Below, one piece after another: positions 5,760 to 60,490 of a DNA stretch of 64,000 nt. The translations under genes were made by a program, and so were the position numbers. Source of the DNA: a virus. Under the pieces are notes generated by a model. That model was not told where the DNA came from and ran no database searches. It worked only from the letters and a program-made list of their open reading frames with translations. The DNA lies in IMG/VR virus record IMGVR_UViG_3300023440_000003, positions 15,588 to 79,587 of that record. One strand, written 5' to 3'. Numbering within the stretch: position 1 is the first letter of the stretch; each line of letters starts with the position of its first letter.

Positions 5760-8700
5760 TTATGGCCTCTTAGGTTCAAAAGGTTTAATATTGGATATTA
5801 TATTTTCCATACTGGCTTGTTCTGGTTTAAATTCATCTATGTTTGTTACTGGCACACTTAAGAGACCTGTTTCTAGATTCATCGAAAATAATCCTCTGTA
5901 GCTTCCACCATATTTCATTGGTGATATATCTAATCGAATTTGTCCTTTGCCTGGCTTTTTTGTAATAGTGTATTTATCTGGTGCGCCACTTGCCGTTATA
6001 AATTGTTGTAATTTTCTCTTTATCATATCTCTAGCTTCGTCGATAGTTCGTTTTTTCTTTAAATAGCCTATGACATAAAAACCTCTTCCTCCTGAGAATC
6101 TAACTTCCACTTGTTTAATGTCTGGATCTTTTTTCATGAAATCTCTTACCTTTTTTGTTACTTCTTTGATTTGATCAAAATCTACATCAGGCCCTGGATC
6201 GATATCTACAACTAATCTATCAGTTATAGCACCAAATGATGGATGAAATTCTACAGTTCTTCTTTCAATCCAGTATTGAAAGTCTTCTGGATTGTCTACA
6301 TCTCCTTTATGTTGTTTTATTTTTATTTTTTCTTCATCTATATTACGTCTTAGTACTATCCTGGAAGGATCAAATGCTTGCATTACAATTACCTGAGGGA
6401 ATTGTTTCAATTCATTAAGAAGATTTTTTCTGATTTTTGGTTGCATATAGAGTAAGAATATATCTCTTTTGGTAAAACTACCGAATGGTGCGTCTACTAT
6501 GATATTATCCCATCTTTCTGGATCGGGAGTTTTTGATGCTACTTTTTCTATAAATTCTTTGCCCTTTTCAGGATGCCATCCTATAAAAACTGGCTGTCTA
6601 AGTGCTCCATCGGGGTATTGTCCGGCTGCTCTGATTTTTGCCACTCGACCTATATATTTTTCTGGATGTTCTGCCATATCTTTTCTTTGTTCCATTGTAA
6701 ATCCTGCACCTACTCTTCCTACCACGGGCCCGTTAGGTTCGAAAGAGTATTCTATACCTCCAGCATATTTGCCTCTCCAGTTTGGAGAAGAGGATTCAAA
6801 GATACCTACTACATAAACATCATATTCAGGTTTGAATTTTGCTTTTACAGGTTTTTCTACATCTTCGAGATTTTGTATTACTATACCTTCTTTAGATTCA
6901 GGTATGGATCCGGTACGTATTGCATCAAAAAGCATTTGCTTTTCTTCTTTGGTAAACGCTGCTTGTGGAGGTTCTGCATAAGGAAAGTGTTGAACGAATT
7001 CATTAATCAGCCTTAGTTTTTCTTTGTAAGGTAATTCTTTTTCTACATATTGGTCTTTAAATTTTACAACATCAAATACCGTAAGGCGGGGCTGGACTTT
7101 TTTGCTTTCAATAAGTTTTCTACTTATTGGAGTCTCGCTATGGGTAACACTTACTATTTCATTAATTGGTTTAGCCTGTCCTTTTTCATCTGTAAGAAAA
7201 AGTTCGGCTCTGAATATACTTCCTTTGAATGATGAAGGCACTTTGAATTTTCCATAAGGAGGAACTTTATATGTATGTTCTATTAATCCCGTACTTGTGC
7301 TTACAGCCCATCTTGGTGAAAAGAGCTTGACTTTACCATCTGGTTTTACATAAAGAAGAACTTGTACACCATCATCTTTTCTGGTAAATATGTATCTATC
7401 ATCATTTAGGAATCTTTTAATTGCTTCTTCTGGAGTTATTTCTTTGTATTTTTCTTTACCTTCCGGAAGGTCCAGTAGTTTATCTCTGGTATCGGTAACA
7501 TTTATCATGTACCAGTTATCACCTTGACCTTTAGTTAACAGGTATTCTTGAGTTTCATTTGCTCGATATATGTTGAATCTTATATGAGAATCATCTGCAC
7601 TTAAGATGTCAGCTTTACCTCTGAACTCTATGGTTACTGTTCCTGCACCATAGTATCCATCAGGAATGCGTCCTGAAAAATTCATATAGTCCATTGTGTG
7701 ATCTGGTTGTCTTATGAATAATCGACGTTCTCCTGGCATAGGCCAGTATCTTCCCGCCCAACTGTAAGCTATTTTTGTTTTAGGATCTCCAAGTCTGAAA
7801 TCGAGGTGGCTATTCGATACAAGCAAACTGCCTGCAAAGTAATTATGATTATCTTCTACTTCAATATCATATCGTTCTAGTGGTTTTGACGGATTTACTT
7901 TTATATACTTTATCTCTCTGATAGGTACAGGCAATAAGGTCATTTCATTATGCGTTGCAGCTGTCCAGTTGTAATATCCTATTTCATCTAAAGGACATTT
8001 ATATTCCATGCCTTTAGCGATGTAAGGAGCTACTAATTTTAGGAATCTTTCTATACTTTTTTTCCTGTTTATGGAAATATAGTAGTAGGTTTTGCCGTTA
8101 GGATAAGTTCTATTTCTTAGAGTAGCGTGGATTTCGTATTTTTCTCGTAGCCATGTAATAATAAGTTGTACATCTTCTTTAGGAAAGCCGAGAGTGTGTA
8201 AGAGTATTTGCTGATGCGGACTAATTCTTTTTCCTCGGTCTGATCTAGGTCTACGTTTGTATCGAGCTGAATGTTTAATAACATAGTCGCCTCCCGGAAC
8301 ATATTGACCATCATCCATATACCATACTGCTAATGCTCTTTCGTCTATCATATCTAATATTTCCTTAGTGATACGTTTCTTGCCGTCTTTGTATAAGATA
8401 TTTCTGAGTAGATAAAACCATGGATGTTTTATTCTGAAATAGTAATAGTCTTGTCTTTTGCCTTTACCTTGTCTAATTTCGACGTCCATTTTAAACGTTG
8501 GAGAGAGAAGTTTGTAACCAAAATCGAAATACTCTTTGTTGACTTGTCCCCAATTGAATGTCCAAGGAGTAGTCTGCGGAATAGACCCATCACCTAATAG
8601 CGCACCTAAGATAAATTGTTTTTGATCTTCTGTTAAATTTTGCACAGGCATCAACATATAATCCCCTTTACGAACATCTTTAGCCAGTTTTGGGATAATT

Positions 8701-9191
8701 TTTCCATCCACATATACATACACTTTATGGTTTCCTGTCAGTGTTATTGACCCACGTCTCGAGTGGAATCTAAGTCTTATCCATTCAGTGGATGTTCCAT
8801 TTTTATACCAGTTAACCACCCTTTTCCATTCCAGTTTACCTGTTCTAAAATTGTAGCTTAGGACTTTTATAGGTAGACGTTTGTTGACTATTTCTTGAAT
8901 TCTTATTCTTCCCTTGTCAGTGATAATTCGTGTGCCTCCCGTCAAACATCCAGCACGTTTAGCATTATGCTTTTGAATGACGCATTCCCATTCTACTGGC
9001 GGATCATCAGGTCCAAGTTTTATAGTCGGAATTGGGGATTTTTGTTCAAAATTTATAATTCCAGTTATAGCAGTATCATTGTATCTGGATTGTGCTCTCT
9101 GTATTAATTTATCCGCTTCTTGCAATAATGGGTCTTCAAGTACAGCCAGATTGTTTAGATTTTCCGCTATTTTAGTTAATTTTTTCCACAT
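5760..9191 (-). CDS. ligD: LigD-like NHEJ enzyme (phosphoesterase, ATP-dependent ligase/OB, primase-polymerase), intein-containing
   Basis: Phosphoesterase: VIQKHNAKRAG/SHLDFRL, DHTMDY, GYYGAG. Ligase: RKDDG, VFDVV, EGIVI, KAKFK. OB: GRVGAGF, LRQPVF. Polymerase: VEFHP, DRLVVDIDP, SGGRG, IRLD. Confidence 0.9.
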   Translation of the reverse strand: MWKKLTKIAENLNNLAVLEDPLLQEADKLIQRAQSRYNDTAITGIINFEQKSPIPTIKLGPDDPPVEWECVIQKHNAKRAGCLTGGTRIITDKGRIRIQEIVNKRLPIKVLSYNFRTGKLEWKRVVNWYKNGTSTEWIRLRFHSRRGSITLTGNHKVYVYVDGKIIPKLAKDVRKGDYMLMPVQNLTEDQKQFILGALLGDGSIPQTTPWTFNWGQVNKEYFDFGYKLLSPTFKMDVEIRQGKGKRQDYYYFRIKHPWFYLLRNILYKDGKKRITKEILDMIDERALAVWYMDDGQYVPGGDYVIKHSARYKRRPRSDRGKRISPHQQILLHTLGFPKEDVQLIITWLREKYEIHATLRNRTYPNGKTYYYISINRKKSIERFLKLVAPYIAKGMEYKCPLDEIGYYNWTAATHNEMTLLPVPIREIKYIKVNPSKPLERYDIEVEDNHNYFAGSLLVSNSHLDFRLGDPKTKIAYSWAGRYWPMPGERRLFIRQPDHTMDYMNFSGRIPDGYYGAGTVTIEFRGKADILSADDSHIRFNIYRANETQEYLLTKGQGDNWYMINVTDTRDKLLDLPEGKEKYKEITPEEAIKRFLNDDRYIFTRKDDGVQVLLYVKPDGKVKLFSPRWAVSTSTGLIEHTYKVPPYGKFKVPSSFKGSIFRAELFLTDEKGQAKPINEIVSVTHSETPISRKLIESKKVQPRLTVFDVVKFKDQYVEKELPYKEKLRLINEFVQHFPYAEPPQAAFTKEEKQMLFDAIRTGSIPESKEGIVIQNLEDVEKPVKAKFKPEYDVYVVGIFESSSPNWRGKYAGGIEYSFEPNGPVVGRVGAGFTMEQRKDMAEHPEKYIGRVAKIRAAGQYPDGALRQPVFIGWHPEKGKEFIEKVASKTPDPERWDNIIVDAPFGSFTKRDIFLLYMQPKIRKNLLNELKQFPQVIVMQAFDPSRIVLRRNIDEEKIKIKQHKGDVDNPEDFQYWIERRTVEFHPSFGAITDRLVVDIDPGPDVDFDQIKEVTKKVRDFMKKDPDIKQVEVRFSGGRGFYVIGYLKKKRTIDEARDMIKRKLQQFITASGAPDKYTITKKPGKGQIRLDISPMKYGGSYRGLFSMNLETGLLSVPVTNIDEFKPEQASMENIISNIKPFEPKRP
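7812..8948 (-). mobile_element. Intein (379 aa) with LAGLIDADG homing endonuclease in the LigD phosphoesterase domain
   Basis: Starts CLTGGTRI; block B LTGNHKV; ILGALLGDG and LAVWYMDDG; ends YDIEVEDNHNYFAGSLLVSN followed by Ser+1. Confidence 0.92.
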
Positions 9192-18341: not shown

Positions 18342-18611
18342 CCAGGGAGGATCCCAGTAGTCCCCCTTGGCCGGGGGGCTCGGGGCACTACGGGTCTAGC
18401 CCCACCCCGCCCGTGGCCCTGAGAATCCTGGGATCGAAGAGGCTGTATGAGTAGGAGGGGCGCCCGGTAGGGGGTAGCCTCTCCGCTGCCCTGCGGTAGG
18501 TCCCACCTACCGCAGGGAAGGCTGACTGGGGACCCGGGACCCGGTCAGCCCAGGGTCAGCGTCGGACCGGCCTGGTCCACCGGTGGCGCTGACTTGGAGT
18601 TTTTTTTTTTT
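18342..18611 (+). ncRNA. Unassigned highly structured ncRNA
   Basis: GC-rich intergenic island in an AT-rich genome; at least six stems whose G-U wobbles favour the + strand; ends in 12 T. Confidence 0.75.
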
Positions 18612-18653
18612 AGCTATTATTTTATTTTAGACTTTTGATAAAATAGCTAAAAA

Positions 18654-22257: not shown

Positions 22258-23136
22258 GTGGCTTATTATTCTTTCCTATCTAATTCAGCAAACTTAATTA
22301 CTGACATAAAGAATGTTCTTGTGACTAATGAAGGATGGATAGATTATGACCCGACATACAATGTAGTTCAGACTCCAGCTACTGCGGCCTATCCTTTTTT
22401 CTTTAGGTTTGTGCAGGTGTTAAATCATTATAGGTTAGATGGAGCTGCCTATCTTGGTTGGGATAATGTCAATCACACTGGTAGTTTTGCTTCTCCAACA
22501 AAGTATGCTCAATTTTATAGCACTACTCCAACAGTTACTCCTGCTGCAGTCAATGTAATTATGTACGTCTGGAATAATGGTTTCATTATATGGCTTAAAG
22601 GTGCTGCTACAGATGGTACTCCCTATACAGGTATGTTTTATATAGGAGATATGGAAGTTTTAAGTGACTTTCCTAATACTATGCCTCTTGCTTATCTTGC
22701 TACATATGGAACTGTGTATGCTCCTGGTTTTGTGGGAGCATGTCCATACACGAGAAATCAAACAGAATTCATATGGAATAATACTGGTTACTATTTTGTT
22801 CTTTCTTCCATAATTCCTGCTGCAAATTATTATGTTCATGTAGGCACAACCACAACTCCTGAAGGTGAGAGGTTATGGTTGAATGAATTGTTTTTAGTTA
22901 ACGTCAATAATCTGACTGCCAACGCTGTTGCTCAGGGTATTATGGGAAAGCTTAGATTTGTGAGAGGTATTTCACAAGATGTAGCATTACTTGACGGTGA
23001 TGAAATTGTCGACCAGTTTAACAGCTGGACTTTTGTGTCCTTACCTCAAGATGGAGGAAATCAGTTCAACAATGCAATGTGGAATGATTTGAGAAATTAT
23101 ACCTCTTTTAAGTACATTGCTATTTTTAAGGCGTAG
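22258..23136 (+). CDS. Putative tail fibre/receptor-binding protein, copy A
   Basis: Rich in aromatics and N/T; paralogous to 23321..24184. Confidence 0.55.
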   Translation: MAYYSFLSNSANLITDIKNVLVTNEGWIDYDPTYNVVQTPATAAYPFFFRFVQVLNHYRLDGAAYLGWDNVNHTGSFASPTKYAQFYSTTPTVTPAAVNVIMYVWNNGFIIWLKGAATDGTPYTGMFYIGDMEVLSDFPNTMPLAYLATYGTVYAPGFVGACPYTRNQTEFIWNNTGYYFVLSSIIPAANYYVHVGTTTTPEGERLWLNELFLVNVNNLTANAVAQGIMGKLRFVRGISQDVALLDGDEIVDQFNSWTFVSLPQDGGNQFNNAMWNDLRNYTSFKYIAIFKA

Positions 23137-29686: not shown

Positions 29687-30016
29687 ATGGACAATTTAGT
29701 ATATGCAAGCTTTTTACTTAAAGAAGCAGCTAAACTCAGTTATAGGGAGCGGCAGCGTTTGCCTGATTCTGCTTTTGCTATTGTTTACAGAGATCCTAAG
29801 ACTGGAGAAAAAATCAGAAAGTACCCTATTCACGATAGGGCCCATGCAAAAAATGCGCTGGCTCGTGTTGCTCAGTTCGGTACCCCTGAAGAAAGAGAAA
29901 TAGTCAGACGAAAGGTTTATCAGCGATATCCTGACTTGAAGAAGCAAAGAGAAGAAAAAATAGGTAGACCTTTGACTAGACGTGATTTACGTAAGCGCAA
30001 GTTACCTAAGAAGTAA
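29687..30016 (+). CDS. Basic DUF6582-like putative head protein
   Basis: RQRLPDSAFA..RKYPIHDRAHAKNALAR; LLKEAA leader; strong SD. Confidence 0.6.
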   Translation: MDNLVYASFLLKEAAKLSYRERQRLPDSAFAIVYRDPKTGEKIRKYPIHDRAHAKNALARVAQFGTPEEREIVRRKVYQRYPDLKKQREEKIGRPLTRRDLRKRKLPKK

Positions 30017-30017
30017 T

Positions 30018-31268
30018 TCAATTTGCATTTGTACACAAAATTAATACTTTATCTGGATACTTTGAATGTCTAAACACTAATATTTGAACAAATCCTGATA
30101 TATTTCGTGGGGTTAGTATTATTTTTTGAGTTTTGGGGTTAAGTTTCTCTAAAAGTGCACTTATCTTTCTATACAAGGCTATATATTCTGTGGTTGACCC
30201 CAGTAACCTGAAGCCTTTATTATATAGCTTTTTGATAAGATTTCTTAAATCGTCCTTATATTTGTATTGTATTATTGCTATGTTTATATCTGGCTTATTT
30301 ATTTCAGCATTCTCGAAGAATCTGTCGTATAGGTGAATGGTATGTCGACCATAAAGTTCAACGCCAGCACTTTTTGCTGCCCATAATATAGGGTTTATGT
30401 ATCCATAATAACCGTTCTTTTTATTATGGTCTCTTTCTTTATCTAAAAATACAGCAGCTTTTTTGGATAATGATCTGGGAAGTTTTAACATTACTTTATC
30501 GTCAGTTTTTACGAAATATAATCCAAGAAATTTGAATTCCTCATTTTTCCTTATTGGTGTGATACGGATCTTAAATTTATAACGTCCAAATACAGACTTA
30601 ATGTAGTTTATGATTTTTTCATCACTTAAACTAGATTGAACTCCTATTAAAAAATCATCAGCATATCTGAATGTCACCATCGATAGCGATCTATTATATG
30701 CTTTTGTAATCACATTAAGTCTGTAAGTTAAGCCCGTAGTAAGTATTCCGGCAAGTATAGGTGATGTAGGTAATCCATAAGGGATATGACCATTTATGAA
30801 ACAATACGTTTTAATTACGTCTATGAATCTATCTATATCCATACCTAACTGCAACTTATTTACCTTAGCTATAAAATTTATTGAATCGTCCAATGCGACG
30901 TCATAAGTTTCATATAATTTTTTTGGGAGAACATATTTATATAGGTCTAATCTGTCAGGAGTTATTGATTCGAAGTAATTTATTACATCCACTTTAAAAA
31001 ATCTTCTGTCATCTTGCAGTATATGAAAGAGTTGTAGGAATTTTTGGCCTGAATGTACTGATGAGATAGCGAAATCAGTACAGTTAGTTTCGACATATTT
31101 TAGATATATGATGTAGTGTGTACTTAGAGTGTTATGCAAAATTTTTAGAACTTTTTCGTAAGGACCTAACGGTATATATATTTTTTTAAACTTATCTTTC
31201 TTCTTTATTTGTCTGACTCTATACACTTTGGGTATTTCTTTCTTGAAAATTTTTGTTTCAAACTCCAT
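30018..31268 (-). CDS. Reverse transcriptase, retron-like/unclassified
   Basis: KVDVINYFESI, IPYGLPTSPIL, FRYADDF, FLGL; strong SD AGGAGGTG. Confidence 0.88.
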   Translation of the reverse strand: MEFETKIFKKEIPKVYRVRQIKKKDKFKKIYIPLGPYEKVLKILHNTLSTHYIIYLKYVETNCTDFAISSVHSGQKFLQLFHILQDDRRFFKVDVINYFESITPDRLDLYKYVLPKKLYETYDVALDDSINFIAKVNKLQLGMDIDRFIDVIKTYCFINGHIPYGLPTSPILAGILTTGLTYRLNVITKAYNRSLSMVTFRYADDFLIGVQSSLSDEKIINYIKSVFGRYKFKIRITPIRKNEEFKFLGLYFVKTDDKVMLKLPRSLSKKAAVFLDKERDHNKKNGYYGYINPILWAAKSAGVELYGRHTIHLYDRFFENAEINKPDINIAIIQYKYKDDLRNLIKKLYNKGFRLLGSTTEYIALYRKISALLEKLNPKTQKIILTPRNISGFVQILVFRHSKYPDKVLILCTNAN

Positions 31269-31289
31269 GCATCACCTCCTTTTCTACTT

Positions 31290-31314
31290 CTTATATCTCT
31301 AAATATGCTAAAAT
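31290..31314. promoter_or_regulatory. Back-to-back promoters: AGATATAAG (-, RT) and TGCTAAAAT (+, RNAP)
   Basis: Both motif classes occur in the 56-nt divergent gap. Confidence 0.55.
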
Positions 31315-31324
31315 GTTCAAAGAA

Positions 31325-34300
31325 ATGGTCAAGGAATTCATTCAATTTGTCAAGTCAGTATTTCCGATAGCCACACAGAATCGTGAGATTAAACTGGATA
31401 ATGTCTATACAGATGCTTCCAAAATACCCGATGTATCTGATTATCAAATCCAAAAAAGATACAGACTTGAAGGCCGAAGTTTAAGTGTACCGGTTTATGC
31501 AGATTTTACTCTGTATGAAAAAGGCAAAGTTGTTGCTAAAGCACAGAAGTTGCTAATCGCTCGCGTACCGTTAAAACTTCCTAGAGGAACTTATCTGTTT
31601 AAGGGTAATGAGTTCTTTGTTGCAAATCAGCTTCGTTTGAAGCCAGGAATTTATGTCAGAATTAGAGAAAACGGAGAAGTGGAGGCCCATTTCAATTTAG
31701 CTAAGTGGACTTTTAAAGCTTATTTTAATGGAAGTAAAGTTTATGCTAAGTTCACAAGAGGTCCTGCTATACCTTACTATACATTACTGAAGCTATTTGG
31801 TGCTTCTGAAGATGAGATTAAAAATGCATTTGGCGAACTATATAATGAGAACATTTTATATGACGAAGATGCTATTCTTGGGTGGTATCGTGCATATTAT
31901 GGAGAAGGTACTAAGGAAGAAGCTGTAAAAACATTCAAAAGTATATTATCCTCCGGTTACAGGTTTGATCCGGAAATTTCCAGGCATCTTTTAAATATAG
32001 AAGCATCAAACATTAATAAAGATGTCCTGCTTGCAGCTTTAAAAAAACTTATCGCAGTACGGAGAGGTGAGAAAGAACCTGATGATAGAGATGCTTTGTT
32101 TTTTAAACAGCTATTGGAAGAAAGCGATATATTAAGTGAACATTTTCATAATATGAAATCAAAAGTTATTTTTAAAATACGAAGAAATCTAGTATTAAAA
32201 GACAAAATAAGAGATATTGTTCCTATAGCTGTATTTCAGAGTGTTGTAGACAATGTTTTTACTAAAGATCTTGTAAATCCTTTAAAGCAAACAAATCCAG
32301 TAACCATTGCAGAAAACAATTCCAGAGTAACTATTTTTGGAGAAGGAGGTATTAAGTCAGAATATGCAGTGCCTTATCAGGCTAGAGCACTTAATCCGTC
32401 GCATTTTGGTATTGTAGATCCAGTAAGGACTCCAGAATCTTCAAAGGTAGGGGCTGTATTATTTAGAACAATTGGAGCTGGTAAAGATCCGAAGACTGGT
32501 CTACCAGCAACTGAAGTTTTAGATGTGAAAACAGGAAAGCTTAAACGGATAACATCAACTGAATTTTTTAATTCAAGGGTTGCTTTTCCTGACCAAATTA
32601 AAGAAGTAAAAAATGGTAAGGTAGTTTTTAAGAACAAGTCTCAGGTAAAAATACTATACCGTGGAAATATTGAAATAGTTCCTGCATCTAAAGTGGATTA
32701 TGTTGTGCCTAACTACATGAATGTTTTTACTGTTTCGACCCTATTTTTACCTTTTTTACAATCATTACACCCTAACCGTGCTTCTAAAGCAGCAAACACC
32801 ATAACACAAGCACTTCCATTAAAATACAGGGAACCTCCTTTGGTCCAAAGCGCAATATCAGAAAATTTATCTATGGTGGATATTGTAGGCAGGCAATATT
32901 CAGTGAGATCTCCTGTGGATGGAGAGATAAAATCGGTTAAGAATAATGTGATAGTCATCAAAGATAAAAAAGGAAAAGAGCATAAAATATCTTTAGCTGA
33001 TTATCTTCCATTGAACCAAAATAGTTTCATCTCTATGGAAATTAAAGAAAATATAAAACCTGGCGTAAAGGTAAAAAAGGGAGATTTGCTGGCAGATACT
33101 AATTTTACAAAAGATGGTCAGTTGGCGTTAGGAGTGAATGCTATTACTGCTTTAATGCCGTTCAAACATTTAAATTTTGAGGATGGTATTGTGGTATCAG
33201 AGTCTTTTGCTAAAAAGCTTACTTCTCAACGTTTATTTCACTTTCGTTATCCTTTAGGTTCTGATGTAAAAATTGACAAAGAACTTTATCGATCACTTTA
33301 TCCTCATGAATTACTTGAAGACAATTATAAAAAGTTGGATGAGGATGGAATAATAAAGAAAGGAGCAGTAGTTAAAGATGGTGATATATTAATAGCGGGC
33401 TTAGTAAAAAAGAAGGAAAGTAAAATAGACGAAATAATTGCTCGGTTAAACAGACGTTTAGTTCAACCCTGGGTAAAAAAGCCATTAATTTGGGATAAAG
33501 AGTTTGATGGCATAGTAAAAGACGTAATTAAGACAAAACAGTTTATATCTATAACTGTTCTTACTGAAGAACCAGCAATAGTTGGAGACAAATTGACAAA
33601 CTCTCATGGTTCAAAAGGAGTCATTGTGCACATAATTCCTGATGATCAAATGCCTAAACTTCCGGATGGTCGAACTGTAGAGGTAATCATAAATCCTGTC
33701 TCTATTCTTGGAAGAAATAATCCATCTCAGGTTTATGAAATGGTAGCTGGAAAAGTAGCTGAAAAACTAAAACAGCCTTTAAAAATTCCAGCATTTGGAG
33801 TAGATGACACTCATAAGTTATTAAAAAATCTCACCAAACAATATGGGGTTTCGGATACTGAAACTTTAATTGATCCAGTTACCGGAAAGAAAATCCCCAA
33901 TGTTATGGTTGGTCCTATGTACATTTATAAACTGGAACATCAAGTAGAAGAAAAAATGTCAGCCAGATACAAAGGAGCCTATGATCAGTGGGATATGACT
34001 CCAGCAAAAGGTGTTGATGAACCTGGACAGGCTGTAGGGCTTATGGAAATATATGCTTTATTGGCTCATGGTGCAGGAAATGTATTAAAAGAAATGGCTA
34101 CATGGAAGTCAGAGCGTAATCCTTTATTCTGGGAGGCCATAGAAAATAACTTACCTCCTCCGCCCCCAAAGACTACATTTGTTACTAAAAAATTCGAGAA
34201 CTTATTGAGAGCTGCTGGAATTGATGTAAAAAAAGAAGGGCATCTCGTAAGGATAATGCCACTTACTCAAAGCCAGGTTAAATCTCTCACACAAAATCGT

Positions 34301-37300
34301 TTCATAAAAAATGCCAAGATGGTAGTAGCTGGTACTTTAAAAGAAGAAAGTGGTGGTCTTTTTGATCCAGAACTAACTGGTGGTTTACGTGGAGATAAAT
34401 GGGCTGCTATTAAGTTACCGGATAAGTTACCTTCACCTATCGTATTGCGTGTGTTTAGCTTATTATTGAATATGAAAGAAAAAGATATTAAAGATATAAT
34501 TCTTGGTGTTAAAAAAATTCAGGGAATGTCTGGTTCTGAAGCTATTCTCAAACTGTTAAAGTCTAAATCTTTAGACGAATATTTGAAGCAAGCTCAGGAT
34601 ATGGCTGACGTAGCTAAGCGGTCTAATAATTTGAACGAGTTAAATAAAGCTAACTTGATTATACGTTTTATAAAATACATGAAGGAGAATAACATTAAAT
34701 GGGAGGAATTCTTTCTCGATCGCTTGCCGGTACTCCCTCCTCAATTCCGTCCTGTGTATGTTGATAAACATAACAGGTTATTTCATTCAGATTTTAATCT
34801 TGTATACAGAGATATTAAATTACTGGCGGACCAGATCCAGAGAGCAAAGCAGGAAGGTTTACCTGAAGACGAGATTAACAAAATGAAGAAAGATTTATAT
34901 GAATCTATTGAAATTCTGTATGGTCTGGCGGATCCTTCTTCTAGATATTATGGTAAACGTAAACCCAGAGGAATACTTGACTACATTCATGGACCAAAAC
35001 CTAAAGAAGGTTACTACCAGCACAAAGTACTCCGTAAAACTCAGGATTTATCTGGACGCTCTGTTATTGTTCCTAATCCTGGCCTCCATCCAGATGAAAT
35101 CGGTATCCCAGAGGAAATGGCGTGGAAGATATTTGAACCTTTTATTTTAGCTAAACTTAAATCAGAGTTTGCTATGTCTCCTGCTGAAGCAAGGATCGAA
35201 CTGGCTAATCGAGGTGATAAGGCCAGAAAAGCTTTGGAATTGGTCGCCAGCGAACGGTTAGTTATTGTTAATCGCGCACCTTCACTTCATAAATACAATA
35301 TGCTCGCTTTTAAACCTAAAATTGTTCCAGGACATGCTATACATTTTCCAAACGTCGTAGTATCTATGCAAAGTGGTGATTACGATGGCAACTCGTTAGC
35401 TGGTGATGAATATGTGATTTATTCGTTGAAAGATGAAATATATTTTCGTCCTATTAAAGACTTTCCTAGGGAAGATTCTCCGTACAAGATTAGTAAAAGA
35501 GGTGTTAAATATTTTAAAGTTCCACCAGGCATCAAGGTTCTTGCCTATGATTATAATACAAACACCTTGAAGTGGGATAAGGTCAGTAGTTTTAGTGAAC
35601 ATCCAGTTCAGAAAGTTTATAAAGTTAAGACTTATCATGGAGCTTCGGCTGTAGTTACTGGAGATCATTCTTTACTTGTTTTTGATCCAAGAGATTATAC
35701 TTTCAAACGTATGTCTCCTTTGGAGATAATGCGTAATAAAAACAGGCGTTTTTTTGTGGTCAGACCTAAGAAAATTCGTCCTCTCGTAGAGGTTCCGCGT
35801 ATAAAATTAGGCGATTTGGAGTTAGATTTGGATTTTGAACTTGGTTATTTAATTGGATGTTATGTTGGGGATGGTTGGGTTGACAATCGGAATGGTTTTT
35901 ACATTGCTAGTATGGATAACGGAATTTACGGTAAGCTTAAAAGACTAATAAAGCGGAAATTTAATGTGGCTATGAAAGCTAGAAAAGCTGTAACCAAGAT
36001 TTTTAAGGGTTATGAAGCAACTTCTAGAAAGTTATACGCTAATTTACCTAAGGAATTCAGACGATTTTTAAAAGAAAATTGTGGAAGCAAAGCTAGTGAT
36101 AAAAAATTACCTTCTCCTATTTACTTTTGTTCGCCTGTTATTTTCAGATTAGGATTATTATCTGGTTTACTTGATACGGATGGTACAGTGCATCAATCTT
36201 CTGAAGGTAGGTTCACTATCCTTTATAATACTATTTCTGAAGTTTTAGCAGATGAAGTTAGAATATTAGCTCTTAGTCTTGGTATCAGATCTACGATTAA
36301 AAAGGTTAAGAATACAGATGGTGTTGAGTATTTTCAGATTATATTTTCCTGCAAGGATTTAGCTGAAGCTGTTTTTGGAAAAGGTATACACCTTAGACTA
36401 TATCATACAAAGAAAAAGAAGATTCTGAGTAAGCTTTTTGAAGTAAAGCGAGATAAACGTTTCAATGGCAGTTTGTTCAATATTGTTCCTATATCTGAAG
36501 AGTTAATATATCTTTTGAATTATTCATATCGAAAAGGTTCTAGATTTTCAGCTGATTTCATCTTAGATACTATTAAGCGTGAATACGTTCCGAAGGAAAT
36601 GATATCTTCTATATTACATAATGTTCATCCTAGACATGAACATTTAAAAAAACAGTTCGAGTTACTTAAAGCTTTTATAGAGACAGATGATGTATGGTTT
36701 GATTTTATTACAGAAGTCATTCCGCAGCAGGAAGTTCCTACCTATGATTTAACTACAGAATCTAAGACTTTTCTGTGTGGTATAGATTTCATAGTTTATG
36801 ATACTACTGCAATACATGTTCCAGTAACTCAAGAAGCTCTGCAGGATGCAGTAAAGCTTTTACCTTCTCAGAATTGGCTTCATGAGGGGCGTCCTAAAGA
36901 AATATGGCTTACGCCAAAGATTGAAGCAATATGGGGGCTCTATAAAATAACCCGAGACGGAAAAGATAAAAGCAAACAGTTTAAATTCAATAATGTAGAT
37001 GATGCATTACGTGCTTTTCACAGAGGTGATATTGACATTACGGATACTGTTGTGATTAATAATCAAAAAACTACTTTAGGTAGAGCCTTAGTTAACCGTA
37101 TTTTACCTAAAGATTTCAGAGATCCTAATATTAAACTAGACAAAACCACTATAAATAAATTGATGCGGAATATTTTTGAAAAATATGGCGGTAAAGAAGG
37201 TGCCAGGGTTGCAGGAGAATTGAATAAACTTGGAGGAGATTTTGCTTATCTTATCGGATTTAAATTGTCTTTAGATGATTTTAGTCCTAAATTTGAGGAT

Positions 37301-38845
37301 TTATTGGACAAAGCGTTTGTAGAATCGCTTAAAACTAAAGATCCATCAAAAATTAACCGTAAGGCTATGGAGCTGCGTCAAAAAATAATGAAGTCTTTAA
37401 TGAAGCAGGATGATAACACTTTGGTACAATTAGTTAAATCCGGTACACGCGCTAAAAAAGATTCCTTAATGCAACTTTTAGCTTCGCCAGTACAGCTTGC
37501 TGATGTATATGATCGTCCAATTCCTGTAATAGTTCCAAGAGGATATGCTAAAGGTATGGACACTATTGATTACTTATTTGCTTCTTATGGTGCTAGAAAA
37601 GGAGCGATAGAAAAAACAGTTAAAACAGGGGAACCTGGAGAGCTTTCAAAAGAACTTGTTGCTGCAGCGATAGATTATGTAATAACTATGGAAGATTGTG
37701 GAACTAGAAAAGGAATCGTTATGGATGTGGATAAGGCAGATGCTTTAAACAGAGCTTTAGCAGAAAATGTGGTTAAAAATGGTAAGATTATTGCAAAACG
37801 TAATGAGATAGTTGATGGTAAAGTATATGAAAAACTCAAAGAATCAGGAGTGAAACAGGTAAAGGTAAGATCACCTTTGACATGTGAAGCCCCTGATGGT
37901 ATATGTGTGTTATGTTATGGTGCTAAACCTGATGGCACAATGCCTCATATAGGAGAATACGTAGGAATTAAGAGTGCACAGTATTTAAGTGAACCTGTAA
38001 CACAGATGACTATATCTTCTGTACATACTGGTGGACTTGTTAAAGATATGGGCACTTCTTTTCAGGATATTAGAGCCGTAATGGAAATGAGTAATGTGCC
38101 TGCTAGAGCCACGGTTGCTAAAGTTGCTGGCAAAGTAGAAAAAATTGTGAAACGGCCAGAAGGCGGATATGAAATAATAATAGATGGAAAATCTCATATC
38201 ACTTCTCCATGGGTTGAACCTAAAGTTAAAGAAGGAGATGAAGTAGCCAAGGGTGATATTTTAACTACTGGTTTACCCCATCCAAAAGATATCTATGATG
38301 CCGCAGGCTTGGAAGCTGCACGTAATTTTGTAGTGAATTATCTTGATACTGCTTATCAACAAAATGGTATGAAGTTAGACAGGCGTCATTTTGAAATTAT
38401 AGGCAAAGTTATGTTTGATACAGCTGTTGTTACTGATCCTGGTGACACGGATTTAGTTCCCGGAGATTACGTTAAAATTAATAAACTCAAAGCTTTAAAC
38501 GCACAGATGCCTCCAGAAATAGACGTATCTTTAGAAGACGCAGCAGGTAGAATCTTGGCAACTCCTGTAGATAAATATCCTGCAGGTACTAAGTTAACTT
38601 CTGAGATAATAGATGATTTAAGAAAGAAAAAAATAAAAACCGTAAAAGTTAGAAGCAAGCCAGCATCATTCAAACCCGTAGTTAAAGGTATAGAACAATT
38701 GCCATTGCTTCGTGATGATTGGCTTACAAGAATGGCTTATAGAGATATTAAAAATACTGCTATAGAAGGGGCTCTACGTTCATGGAGTTCTGACTTACAA
38801 GGCTACAGTCCGATACCAAAATTAGTGTATGGAGAGACTCCATGA
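31325..38845 (+). CDS. rpoBC: Fused beta/beta-prime multisubunit-type DNA-dependent RNA polymerase, intein-containing
   Basis: Beta: NQLRLKPG, RTPES, NFEDGIVVSE, GDKLTNSHGSKG, YKLEH..EKMSAR, GLMEIYAL. Beta-prime: GGLFD, LPVLPP..RP, SGRSVI, NRAPSLH, DYDG, RSPLTC, EPVTQ..HTGG, RHFEII. Start is 31325 or 31313. Confidence 0.95.
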   Translation: MVKEFIQFVKSVFPIATQNREIKLDNVYTDASKIPDVSDYQIQKRYRLEGRSLSVPVYADFTLYEKGKVVAKAQKLLIARVPLKLPRGTYLFKGNEFFVANQLRLKPGIYVRIRENGEVEAHFNLAKWTFKAYFNGSKVYAKFTRGPAIPYYTLLKLFGASEDEIKNAFGELYNENILYDEDAILGWYRAYYGEGTKEEAVKTFKSILSSGYRFDPEISRHLLNIEASNINKDVLLAALKKLIAVRRGEKEPDDRDALFFKQLLEESDILSEHFHNMKSKVIFKIRRNLVLKDKIRDIVPIAVFQSVVDNVFTKDLVNPLKQTNPVTIAENNSRVTIFGEGGIKSEYAVPYQARALNPSHFGIVDPVRTPESSKVGAVLFRTIGAGKDPKTGLPATEVLDVKTGKLKRITSTEFFNSRVAFPDQIKEVKNGKVVFKNKSQVKILYRGNIEIVPASKVDYVVPNYMNVFTVSTLFLPFLQSLHPNRASKAANTITQALPLKYREPPLVQSAISENLSMVDIVGRQYSVRSPVDGEIKSVKNNVIVIKDKKGKEHKISLADYLPLNQNSFISMEIKENIKPGVKVKKGDLLADTNFTKDGQLALGVNAITALMPFKHLNFEDGIVVSESFAKKLTSQRLFHFRYPLGSDVKIDKELYRSLYPHELLEDNYKKLDEDGIIKKGAVVKDGDILIAGLVKKKESKIDEIIARLNRRLVQPWVKKPLIWDKEFDGIVKDVIKTKQFISITVLTEEPAIVGDKLTNSHGSKGVIVHIIPDDQMPKLPDGRTVEVIINPVSILGRNNPSQVYEMVAGKVAEKLKQPLKIPAFGVDDTHKLLKNLTKQYGVSDTETLIDPVTGKKIPNVMVGPMYIYKLEHQVEEKMSARYKGAYDQWDMTPAKGVDEPGQAVGLMEIYALLAHGAGNVLKEMATWKSERNPLFWEAIENNLPPPPPKTTFVTKKFENLLRAAGIDVKKEGHLVRIMPLTQSQVKSLTQNRFIKNAKMVVAGTLKEESGGLFDPELTGGLRGDKWAAIKLPDKLPSPIVLRVFSLLLNMKEKDIKDIILGVKKIQGMSGSEAILKLLKSKSLDEYLKQAQDMADVAKRSNNLNELNKANLIIRFIKYMKENNIKWEEFFLDRLPVLPPQFRPVYVDKHNRLFHSDFNLVYRDIKLLADQIQRAKQEGLPEDEINKMKKDLYESIEILYGLADPSSRYYGKRKPRGILDYIHGPKPKEGYYQHKVLRKTQDLSGRSVIVPNPGLHPDEIGIPEEMAWKIFEPFILAKLKSEFAMSPAEARIELANRGDKARKALELVASERLVIVNRAPSLHKYNMLAFKPKIVPGHAIHFPNVVVSMQSGDYDGNSLAGDEYVIYSLKDEIYFRPIKDFPREDSPYKISKRGVKYFKVPPGIKVLAYDYNTNTLKWDKVSSFSEHPVQKVYKVKTYHGASAVVTGDHSLLVFDPRDYTFKRMSPLEIMRNKNRRFFVVRPKKIRPLVEVPRIKLGDLELDLDFELGYLIGCYVGDGWVDNRNGFYIASMDNGIYGKLKRLIKRKFNVAMKARKAVTKIFKGYEATSRKLYANLPKEFRRFLKENCGSKASDKKLPSPIYFCSPVIFRLGLLSGLLDTDGTVHQSSEGRFTILYNTISEVLADEVRILALSLGIRSTIKKVKNTDGVEYFQIIFSCKDLAEAVFGKGIHLRLYHTKKKKILSKLFEVKRDKRFNGSLFNIVPISEELIYLLNYSYRKGSRFSADFILDTIKREYVPKEMISSILHNVHPRHEHLKKQFELLKAFIETDDVWFDFITEVIPQQEVPTYDLTTESKTFLCGIDFIVYDTTAIHVPVTQEALQDAVKLLPSQNWLHEGRPKEIWLTPKIEAIWGLYKITRDGKDKSKQFKFNNVDDALRAFHRGDIDITDTVVINNQKTTLGRALVNRILPKDFRDPNIKLDKTTINKLMRNIFEKYGGKEGARVAGELNKLGGDFAYLIGFKLSLDDFSPKFEDLLDKAFVESLKTKDPSKINRKAMELRQKIMKSLMKQDDNTLVQLVKSGTRAKKDSLMQLLASPVQLADVYDRPIPVIVPRGYAKGMDTIDYLFASYGARKGAIEKTVKTGEPGELSKELVAAAIDYVITMEDCGTRKGIVMDVDKADALNRALAENVVKNGKIIAKRNEIVDGKVYEKLKESGVKQVKVRSPLTCEAPDGICVLCYGAKPDGTMPHIGEYVGIKSAQYLSEPVTQMTISSVHTGGLVKDMGTSFQDIRAVMEMSNVPARATVAKVAGKVEKIVKRPEGGYEIIIDGKSHITSPWVEPKVKEGDEVAKGDILTTGLPHPKDIYDAAGLEAARNFVVNYLDTAYQQNGMKLDRRHFEIIGKVMFDTAVVTDPGDTDLVPGDYVKINKLKALNAQMPPEIDVSLEDAAGRILATPVDKYPAGTKLTSEIIDDLRKKKIKTVKVRSKPASFKPVVKGIEQLPLLRDDWLTRMAYRDIKNTAIEGALRSWSSDLQGYSPIPKLVYGETP
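35393..36802 (+). mobile_element. Intein (470 aa, Ser1, C-terminal Asp, Thr+1) with LAGLIDADG endonuclease in the RNAP catalytic loop
   Basis: SLAGDEYV start; block B VTGDHSL; LIGCYVGDG and LSGLLDTDG; ends TYDLTT..TFLCGIDFIVYD; flanks align to NADFDGDQMAVHVP. Confidence 0.9.
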
Positions 38846-60275: not shown

Positions 60276-60305
60276 CCAATCCTCCTGCCCATGATTTTTT
60301 CTACA

Positions 60306-60379
60306 CCATCTGAGCGGGCCACTCAGATGGCCGAATAGCTAAAAGCGGGTAGGAAGGGGAATTCCCCCCTTCCTACCCG
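60306..60379 (-). promoter_or_regulatory. Double-hairpin leader with internal terminator-like element
   Basis: 14-bp stem at 60346-60379, then TTTTAGCTA, then a 9-bp stem at 60306-60330. Confidence 0.6.
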
Positions 60380-60421
60380 TGTTACTAATCAAAATTTACT
60401 ACCCTGTTTTTTATTTCTTAC

Positions 60422-60461
60422 CTTATAACATAAACAATCCGTAGCTGTTTCGTGTTAAAAG
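60422..60461. promoter_or_regulatory. Divergent class-B motifs TGTTATAAG (-) and TGTTAAAAG (+)
   Basis: Located in the divergent intergenic gap. Confidence 0.5.
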
Positions 60462-60490
60462 AAATAAAATTAACTGGAAGGAGGTGATTC

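Follow-up and report, generated by a model that had tools for sequence, protein, structure and literature searches.

Reverse transcriptases (RTs) related to those of retrons are already known from viruses. The viral retron-like RT clusters RTC3 and 'new' RTC5 were defined by global metagenomics and share ancestry with bacterial retron RTs, and the most common RTs among phages are those of diversity-generating retroelements (DGRs) (PMC13681634). The VTG sequence of motif 7 is a signature of retron RTs (PMC8632793). In this study we examined a single RT gene in a phage sequence derived from microbial mat metagenomes. The gene is located at 30018..31268 on the minus strand of a 64,000-nt window, the stretch of DNA that was analysed, which forms part of the 79587-bp IMG/VR virus record IMGVR_UViG_3300023440_000003; the remaining 15.6 kb of the record was scanned as well. 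Since viral retron-like RT clades have been published, the window RT counts as a rare branch within a class of enzymes that is already known. In our estimation it is probably a genuine RT of a very small, one-lineage family, a deep and fast-evolving sister or derivative of the retron RTs that is now solitary.

The RT differs from each of the closest described systems. Compared with retron RTs (Ec83, Eco8, Ec86, and those of phage loci L052 and L074) it scored 42-52 bits versus 178-264 bits, or about a fifth. Relative to these enzymes it lacks NAxxH, reads PYG for PQG and FLG for VTG, is not accompanied by an adjacent msr-msd or a recognizable effector, and carries an extra C-terminal domain of ~90 amino acids without matches. 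Like RTC3 and RTC5 (PMC13681634) it is phage-borne, shares ancestry with bacterial retron RTs and has no assigned function. Set beside those clusters by description, however, its family has three members and is without the retron-specific domains used there (NF038237, 21.9 bits). The group II profile ranked second for the window RT (36.9 versus 52 bits), and its catalytic box is YADD while G2L4 and the free-standing group II-like RTs have YIDD. DRT2 and DRT9 are class 2 UG RTs of bacterial defence, and the non-coding RNA (ncRNA) that they use as template is encoded right next to the RT gene. The window RT is a phage gene, and no Drt hidden Markov model (HMM) matches it.

An intact reverse transcriptase nearest to retron RTs

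The gene is an intact open reading frame (ORF) of 416 amino acids, recognized from the ORF list, its translation, HMM and profile matches, and an AlphaFold2 (AF2) model. Residues 1-325 comprise a fingers-palm-thumb core, and a C-terminal alpha/beta domain occupies residues ~341-416. An initial annotation, made by reading the DNA without database searches, had claimed an intact catalytic Asp triad and several departures from the retron consensus, and all of these could be read in the translation. Motif A is FFKVDVINYF with the catalytic Asp94, and the YxDD box is FRYADDF with Asp204/205. At the position of LPQGxPxSP, the usual form in most prokaryotic RTs, the sequence is IPYGLPTSP. The xVTGL position is occupied by KFLGLYF, with a primer-grip-like FLG. 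NAxxH was not found in the RT; the sequence there is QLFH, of which only His82 aligns, and this residue is Lys in P0002, a homologue described below.

Pfam RVT_1 scored 27.8 bits against the RT in hmmscan, where the cut-off is 29.6, and 31.2 bits in a six-frame scan of the genome. The motif A Asp, the YxDD box and the fingers-palm-thumb fold are those of the RT superfamily (RVT_1). Judged by its sequence, the identification of a genuine, intact RT is well supported.

Class models were then compared. An hhalign comparison of the family profile with a retron RT set gave a probability of 99.9% (E 1.6e-35) over residues 9-294. Among NCBIfam models the best was retron_St85 (52.3 bits, cut-off 235), followed by the group II intron RT model TIGR04416 (36.9 bits, cut-off 300), Retron-TIR (26.6 bits, cut-off 600) and Ec67 (21.9 bits, cut-off 450). 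No Drt or AbiA model in NCBIfam matched at E <= 1. PADLOC ranked retron RT types first, led by RT_III-A at 42 bits, and a CRISPR-associated RT model was also among its top matches with 39.9 bits; the 25 best PADLOC matches were all retron or CRISPR-RT models, with no Drt1-9, AbiA, AbiK or Abi-P2 model among them. The two other family members rank the class models in the same way, retron first. The RT falls below the curated cut-off of every retron RT model. It is nearest to retron RTs, yet it passes none of the defining tests applied for retron, group II intron, DGR or UG/Abi RTs. The assignment to an unclassified group in the initial annotation holds up, with all HMM scores far below their cut-offs and three members in large protein searches.

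The AF2 model has a pLDDT of 79. It supports a prokaryotic RT and leaves the class undecided, because the alignment behind the model consists mostly of retron RTs. Matches of the model in the PDB stop at residue ~325 and none reaches the C-terminal domain. That domain, of ~90 residues and particular to this family, is without a recognizable fold or family match; Atlas searches gave scores of <=0.84 with no informative match, and it has no similarity to the small ORFs downstream of phage retrons.

A family of three sequences

A word-indexed search of ~5.8 billion protein clusters returned P0002 as the sole homologue, a protein of 414 amino acids on a 2448-bp Logan contig that is 45-47% identical to the window RT (P0001). 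The two share all catalytic motifs and a large part of the C-terminal domain. When 1.84 billion cluster representatives were searched exhaustively with a profile, no sequence other than the query and P0002 scored below 1e-30, the next match having an E value of 3e-15. A third member, P0008 (372 amino acids, ENA), was recovered from the weak matches, with 29% identity over residues 156-295 and a BLASTP value of 2e-16. P0008 has in common with the window RT the motifs LPxGxPTSP, FLGL, KxPRxxxKxAAxF and GYxxYIxPI and the C-terminal L..NG[YF]R[IL]L. Repeating the search of ~5.8 billion clusters with a three-sequence profile produced no extra member. The family has three members, each a singleton, and relatives were absent from IMG/VR, JGI metagenomes and GTDB genomes in an RT alignment search and from INPHARED by tblastn.

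The gene divergent from the RT encodes the phage RNA polymerase (RNAP). Its closest homologue, P0153, is 58% identical. P0008 and P0153 come from the same source, each on an ENA contig of 58158 bp, so this RT family is probably present in the nearest related phage as well.

A tree of 60 sequences was built from the three family members, eight RTs from phage loci and 48 retron-like matches, with one group II RT serving as the outgroup. The three members grouped together (SH-aLRT 89); their long branch left the retron set at its base and did not fall within the phage retron clade (96*). Forcing it into the phage retron clade cost 20 log-likelihood units and was not rejected by the approximately unbiased (AU) test (p 0.207). 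The separate clade is thus recovered, but membership in the phage retron clade is not rejected, and the sequences point either to a fast-evolving offshoot of phage retron RTs or to an independent deep lineage.

A gene with no recognizable partner at its side

Both flanks of the RT gene were examined for a retron-type RNA or effector. The RNAP gene begins at one of two in-frame ATGs, at 31313 or 31325, so the divergent gap to the RT is 44 or 56 nt. On the other side, the stop codon of a convergent gene of 109 amino acids (29687..30016, plus strand; phrog_16160) lies 1 nt from the RT stop. The short upstream gap and the adjacent convergent gene were both anticipated in the initial annotation, as was the absence of room for an adjacent msr-msd or effector. 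An msr-msd closed by inverted repeats was not found at the RT or in its upstream gap, and the flanks of the RT strand are no more structured than shuffled sequence (z +1.1 upstream, -0.6 downstream). In two related phages, homologues of phrog_16160 directly follow the RNAP gene, which identifies the convergent gene as a normal component of such phages rather than an RT effector. Other genes around the RT are tail-fibre-like and baseplate-like. Nothing beside the RT gene is recognizable as a partner, and the RT appears to stand alone.

The search was extended to all 79.6 kb of the record. Rfam scans, at gathering thresholds and at E <= 1, found no retron msr and no group II intron RNA (Intron_gpII, group-II-D1D4) in the contig, only chance miRNA-like matches. 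Self-comparison of the 79.6-kb contig, ~44% of the genome, found no DGR template/variable repeat pair; the sole repeat of >=60 nt is a paralogous gene pair at 22327/23387. The earlier statement that neither a DGR repeat pair nor group II RNA is visible is borne out by these scans. DGR and intron RTs normally lie beside their own RNA parts. DGR RTs are the commonest phage RTs (PMC13681634) and the contig is only ~44% complete, so a DGR or group II intron RT could in principle have its other parts in the remaining 56% of the genome. Besides the missing repeats and RNA domains, Pfam detected no GIIM/maturase or endonuclease domain in the RT, and its motif 4 is GLPTSP. The DGR-type motif 4 is xxxSQ. 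The DGR or group II intron reading is largely refuted, and we give it almost no credence.

Start signals and promoter

A strong Shine-Dalgarno site had been noted, and GGAGGTG is indeed found at 31273..31279 on the minus strand, 4 nt before the RT ATG. A putative promoter at 31290..31320 (minus strand) was recognized by consensus match. It consists of TTGAAC at 31320-31315, a spacer of 17 nt, and GATATA/TATAAG at 31297-31290, and it overlaps the first RNAP codons. A generic sigma-70 scan listed another, weak site near the RT at 31332-31305. The initial annotation described a class-B promoter motif like that of native phage genes. The sequence bears this out only weakly. By our reading of the ORF map, 5/9 sites of the GNTATAAG promoter motif are upstream of a correctly oriented gene, including the site at 31297-31290, 22 nt before the RT start, but the 9 sites compare with 13.6 expected by chance and there is no overall enrichment. 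The TATAAG-type site before the RT is a plausible promoter.

Retron RTs in related phages

The divergent RNAP gene (31313..38845, plus strand) was identified by domain matches as a single-chain fused beta-beta' enzyme with a LAGLIDADG intein. It is a marker of the phage lineage and not a part of the RT system. The fused beta-beta' RNAP family comprises >669 proteins, and the contigs that encode them reach ~190 kb. Many of the proteins lack an intein and have ~2000 amino acids, and some have one or more inteins. The second intein of the window, with a LAGLIDADG endonuclease, splits a phage LigD with phosphoesterase and primase-polymerase domains (5760-9191, minus strand). Among cultured phages, Salmonella phage Arash and Vibrio phage D69 have the closest RNAPs, at only 30-32% identity; neither has an annotated RT near its RNAP gene.

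We scanned 80 IMG/VR loci with related RNAPs for RT genes. An RT was found within 10 kb of the RNAP gene in 8/80 loci, and 7/8 were upstream on the opposite strand, ~3-6 kb from the RNAP gene (L052, L074, L072, L067, L080, L075, and L018). The RTs at these seven loci are canonical retron RTs with NAxxH, LPQG, YADD and VTG present. The three of them scanned with PADLOC scored 178-264 bits on retron models versus 42 for the window RT. Five of the seven have a non-coding gap of 300-1100 nt before the RT and a small overlapping ORF after it. The small ORFs had no match to known retron effectors, and the upstream RNA gaps of five related phages were too divergent to align. Several of the phages have a structured gap before the RT. 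That of L052 folds strongly (z -7.1) into a long hairpin and a stem that closes over a long range, the shape that an msr-msd would be expected to have.

Among whole phage records, 14/50 carry an RT, including 5/7 of those that are >=90% complete. Ten further RTs (L085-L094) all matched the retron-based RT profile, at 86-240 bits. These figures suggest that retron-type RTs are regular cargo of the fused-RNAP phage group. The description of the window RT as an orphan is accordingly tempered. It does stand alone, but the word is overstated when retron-type RTs occur in 14/50 records, seven of them lie upstream of and opposite the RNAP gene, and union with the phage retron clade has an AU p of 0.21.

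Four of the ten further RTs, one counted twice from near-identical records, have a Y[CS]DN box (L091/L092:4032-5209, L094:4221-5327, and L086:3960-5063). Going by the sequences, Y[CS]DN in full-length phage retron-type RTs would be either a recurrent functional variant or the result of repeated inactivation.

Residency of the RT gene

The GC content of third codon positions (GC3) is 0.259 in the RT and averages 0.258 over the genome, and for a gene of this length the codon usage is unremarkable. A strain variant from a second sample of the same study has 6 differences in the 1114 nt of the RT covered, of which three are silent and three are the conservative amino acid changes R183K, T178M, and T154A. 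Both junctions of the RT gene are also spanned by contigs, of low depth, from another study made later. Small as these numbers are, they fit a maintained gene. With its own Shine-Dalgarno site, the RT looks like a long-resident phage gene that is compositionally adapted, in line with the domesticated gene of the initial annotation.

A GC-rich structured element

A candidate structured element of ~270 nt was found at 18342..18616 on the plus strand by folding and GC profile. It reaches 74% GC in a genome of 35% GC. The predicted plus-strand structure has z scores of -4.6 to -6.1 and ends in a hairpin followed by T12. No noteworthy ORF lies within it and it has no match in Rfam, and the 79.6-kb contig holds no other long element that resembles an ncRNA. 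It is flanked by ORFs that we take, by the look of their sequences, to encode a cell-wall amidase (endolysin) on one side and a small membrane protein on the other. An RNA so rich in GC, encoded by an AT-rich genome, suggests that the host is a thermophile.

Such an element raises the possibility of a split retron-like system, in which the RT would copy a phage RNA encoded elsewhere into an msDNA-like product. This corresponds to the template in trans proposed in the initial annotation, which is speculative. The RT has no RNA in cis, and 18342-18616 is exceptional enough in its composition, folding and transcript-like end (a hairpin and T12, as in an independent transcript) to be the candidate template. 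Against this, it is 11.5 kb from the RT and on the opposite strand. An enclosing stem of the a1/a2 type, as in the RNA upstream of the L052 RT, is missing from it. An exact-pattern scan of IMG/VR found no match to its perfect 13-bp hairpin, and it could equally be a terminator, a stabilizer or an unrelated phage RNA. We regard a split system of this kind as unlikely.

Two other intergenic regions, both divergent, 60276-60490 of the window and 6534-6762 of the genome (L004), each contain a pair of hairpins that are perfect palindromes, GC-rich and 12-15 bp long (z ~-7). They were considered as retron-like RNAs and rejected, being pairs of perfect palindromes that we read as terminators or operators. 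Their sequences may specify bidirectional terminators or operator sites. A motif, TTTTAGC(T/A)AT / AGCTAAAAAAT, is repeated beside hairpins and gene starts (window 18608-18652, 60335-60344, and several upstream regions). Its placement would be compatible with TTTTAGC(T/A)AT / AGCTAAAAAAT acting as a promoter or terminator signal of the phage RNAP, and it may have that role.

Origin and role of the RT

In the reading that we favour, the window RT would descend from, or have replaced, retron cargo near the RNAP gene, and the cis msr-msd and the retron signature motifs would have been lost along the way. Our guess is that the RT acts alone, making DNA on a template supplied in trans or by self-priming or protein-priming. 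Its most likely role, by analogy, would be in phage-phage or phage-host conflict, through exclusion of rivals or countering of defence, and not in genome replication.

Several points weigh against this reading. The contig is estimated to be 44% complete, which would put the full genome at about 180 kb, and a partner RNA, an effector or a DGR target could sit in the remainder. Because the tree contains long branches and just one outgroup sequence, 'basal to retrons' is not secure, and the family may be either an offshoot or a deep lineage. The YxDD box of P0008 is RYCDNF, and the first ~46 residues, which hold fingers motifs 1-2, are missing from the protein as called. Because of this YCDN box and the absent N-terminal fingers, polymerase activity may not be conserved throughout the family. 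Finally, the conflict role is a guess drawn from retrons, DRTs and Abi RTs only.

The P0008 sequence bears also on whether the window RT is a decaying phage retron remnant, left after loss of the msr-msd and effector and drifting without function. NAxxH, PQG, VTG and the cis RNA are lost in the RT while related phages retain canonical retrons. The family is exceedingly rare and sits on a very long branch, and P0008 combines YCDN with a shortened N-terminus. Decay is nevertheless hard to reconcile with a full ORF of 416 amino acids and a 414-residue orthologue that, at only 47% identity, conserves every catalytic motif and much of the C-terminal domain. The strong Shine-Dalgarno site, the genome-typical codon usage and the persistence in strains from two studies with few, conservative changes also speak against it. 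The YCDN box of P0008 need not signal decay, because YxDN is present in other full-length phage retron-type RTs. A drifting remnant seems to us improbable.

A further alternative is a stand-alone repair or translesion polymerase like G2L4, which would work on DNA ends without an RNA of its own, possibly in concert with the phage LigD. The second rank of the group II profile and the YADD box, as compared with YIDD, are the sequence features that bear on it, and we think it quite improbable. More ambitious, and unlikely, is a new functional type: a solitary retron-derived phage RT with a novel C-terminal domain that would act in trans on a structured phage RNA (for example 18342-18616, perhaps transcribed by the phage RNAP) and make cDNA for counter-defence or exclusion of rivals, as a 'split retron' run by the virus.

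If the solitary RT that we favour is active, the phage retains a retron-type RT without its cis RNA and effector, and a template or priming mode not yet described for the retron RT branch is implied. The enzyme could also serve as a compact RT for tool development; that it is heat stable is a guess from the habitat and the GC-rich RNA. The retron-type RTs found across the fused-RNAP phages may matter more than the window RT alone. What a retron does for a virus could be tested in cultured fused-RNAP relatives, if any of them carries one.
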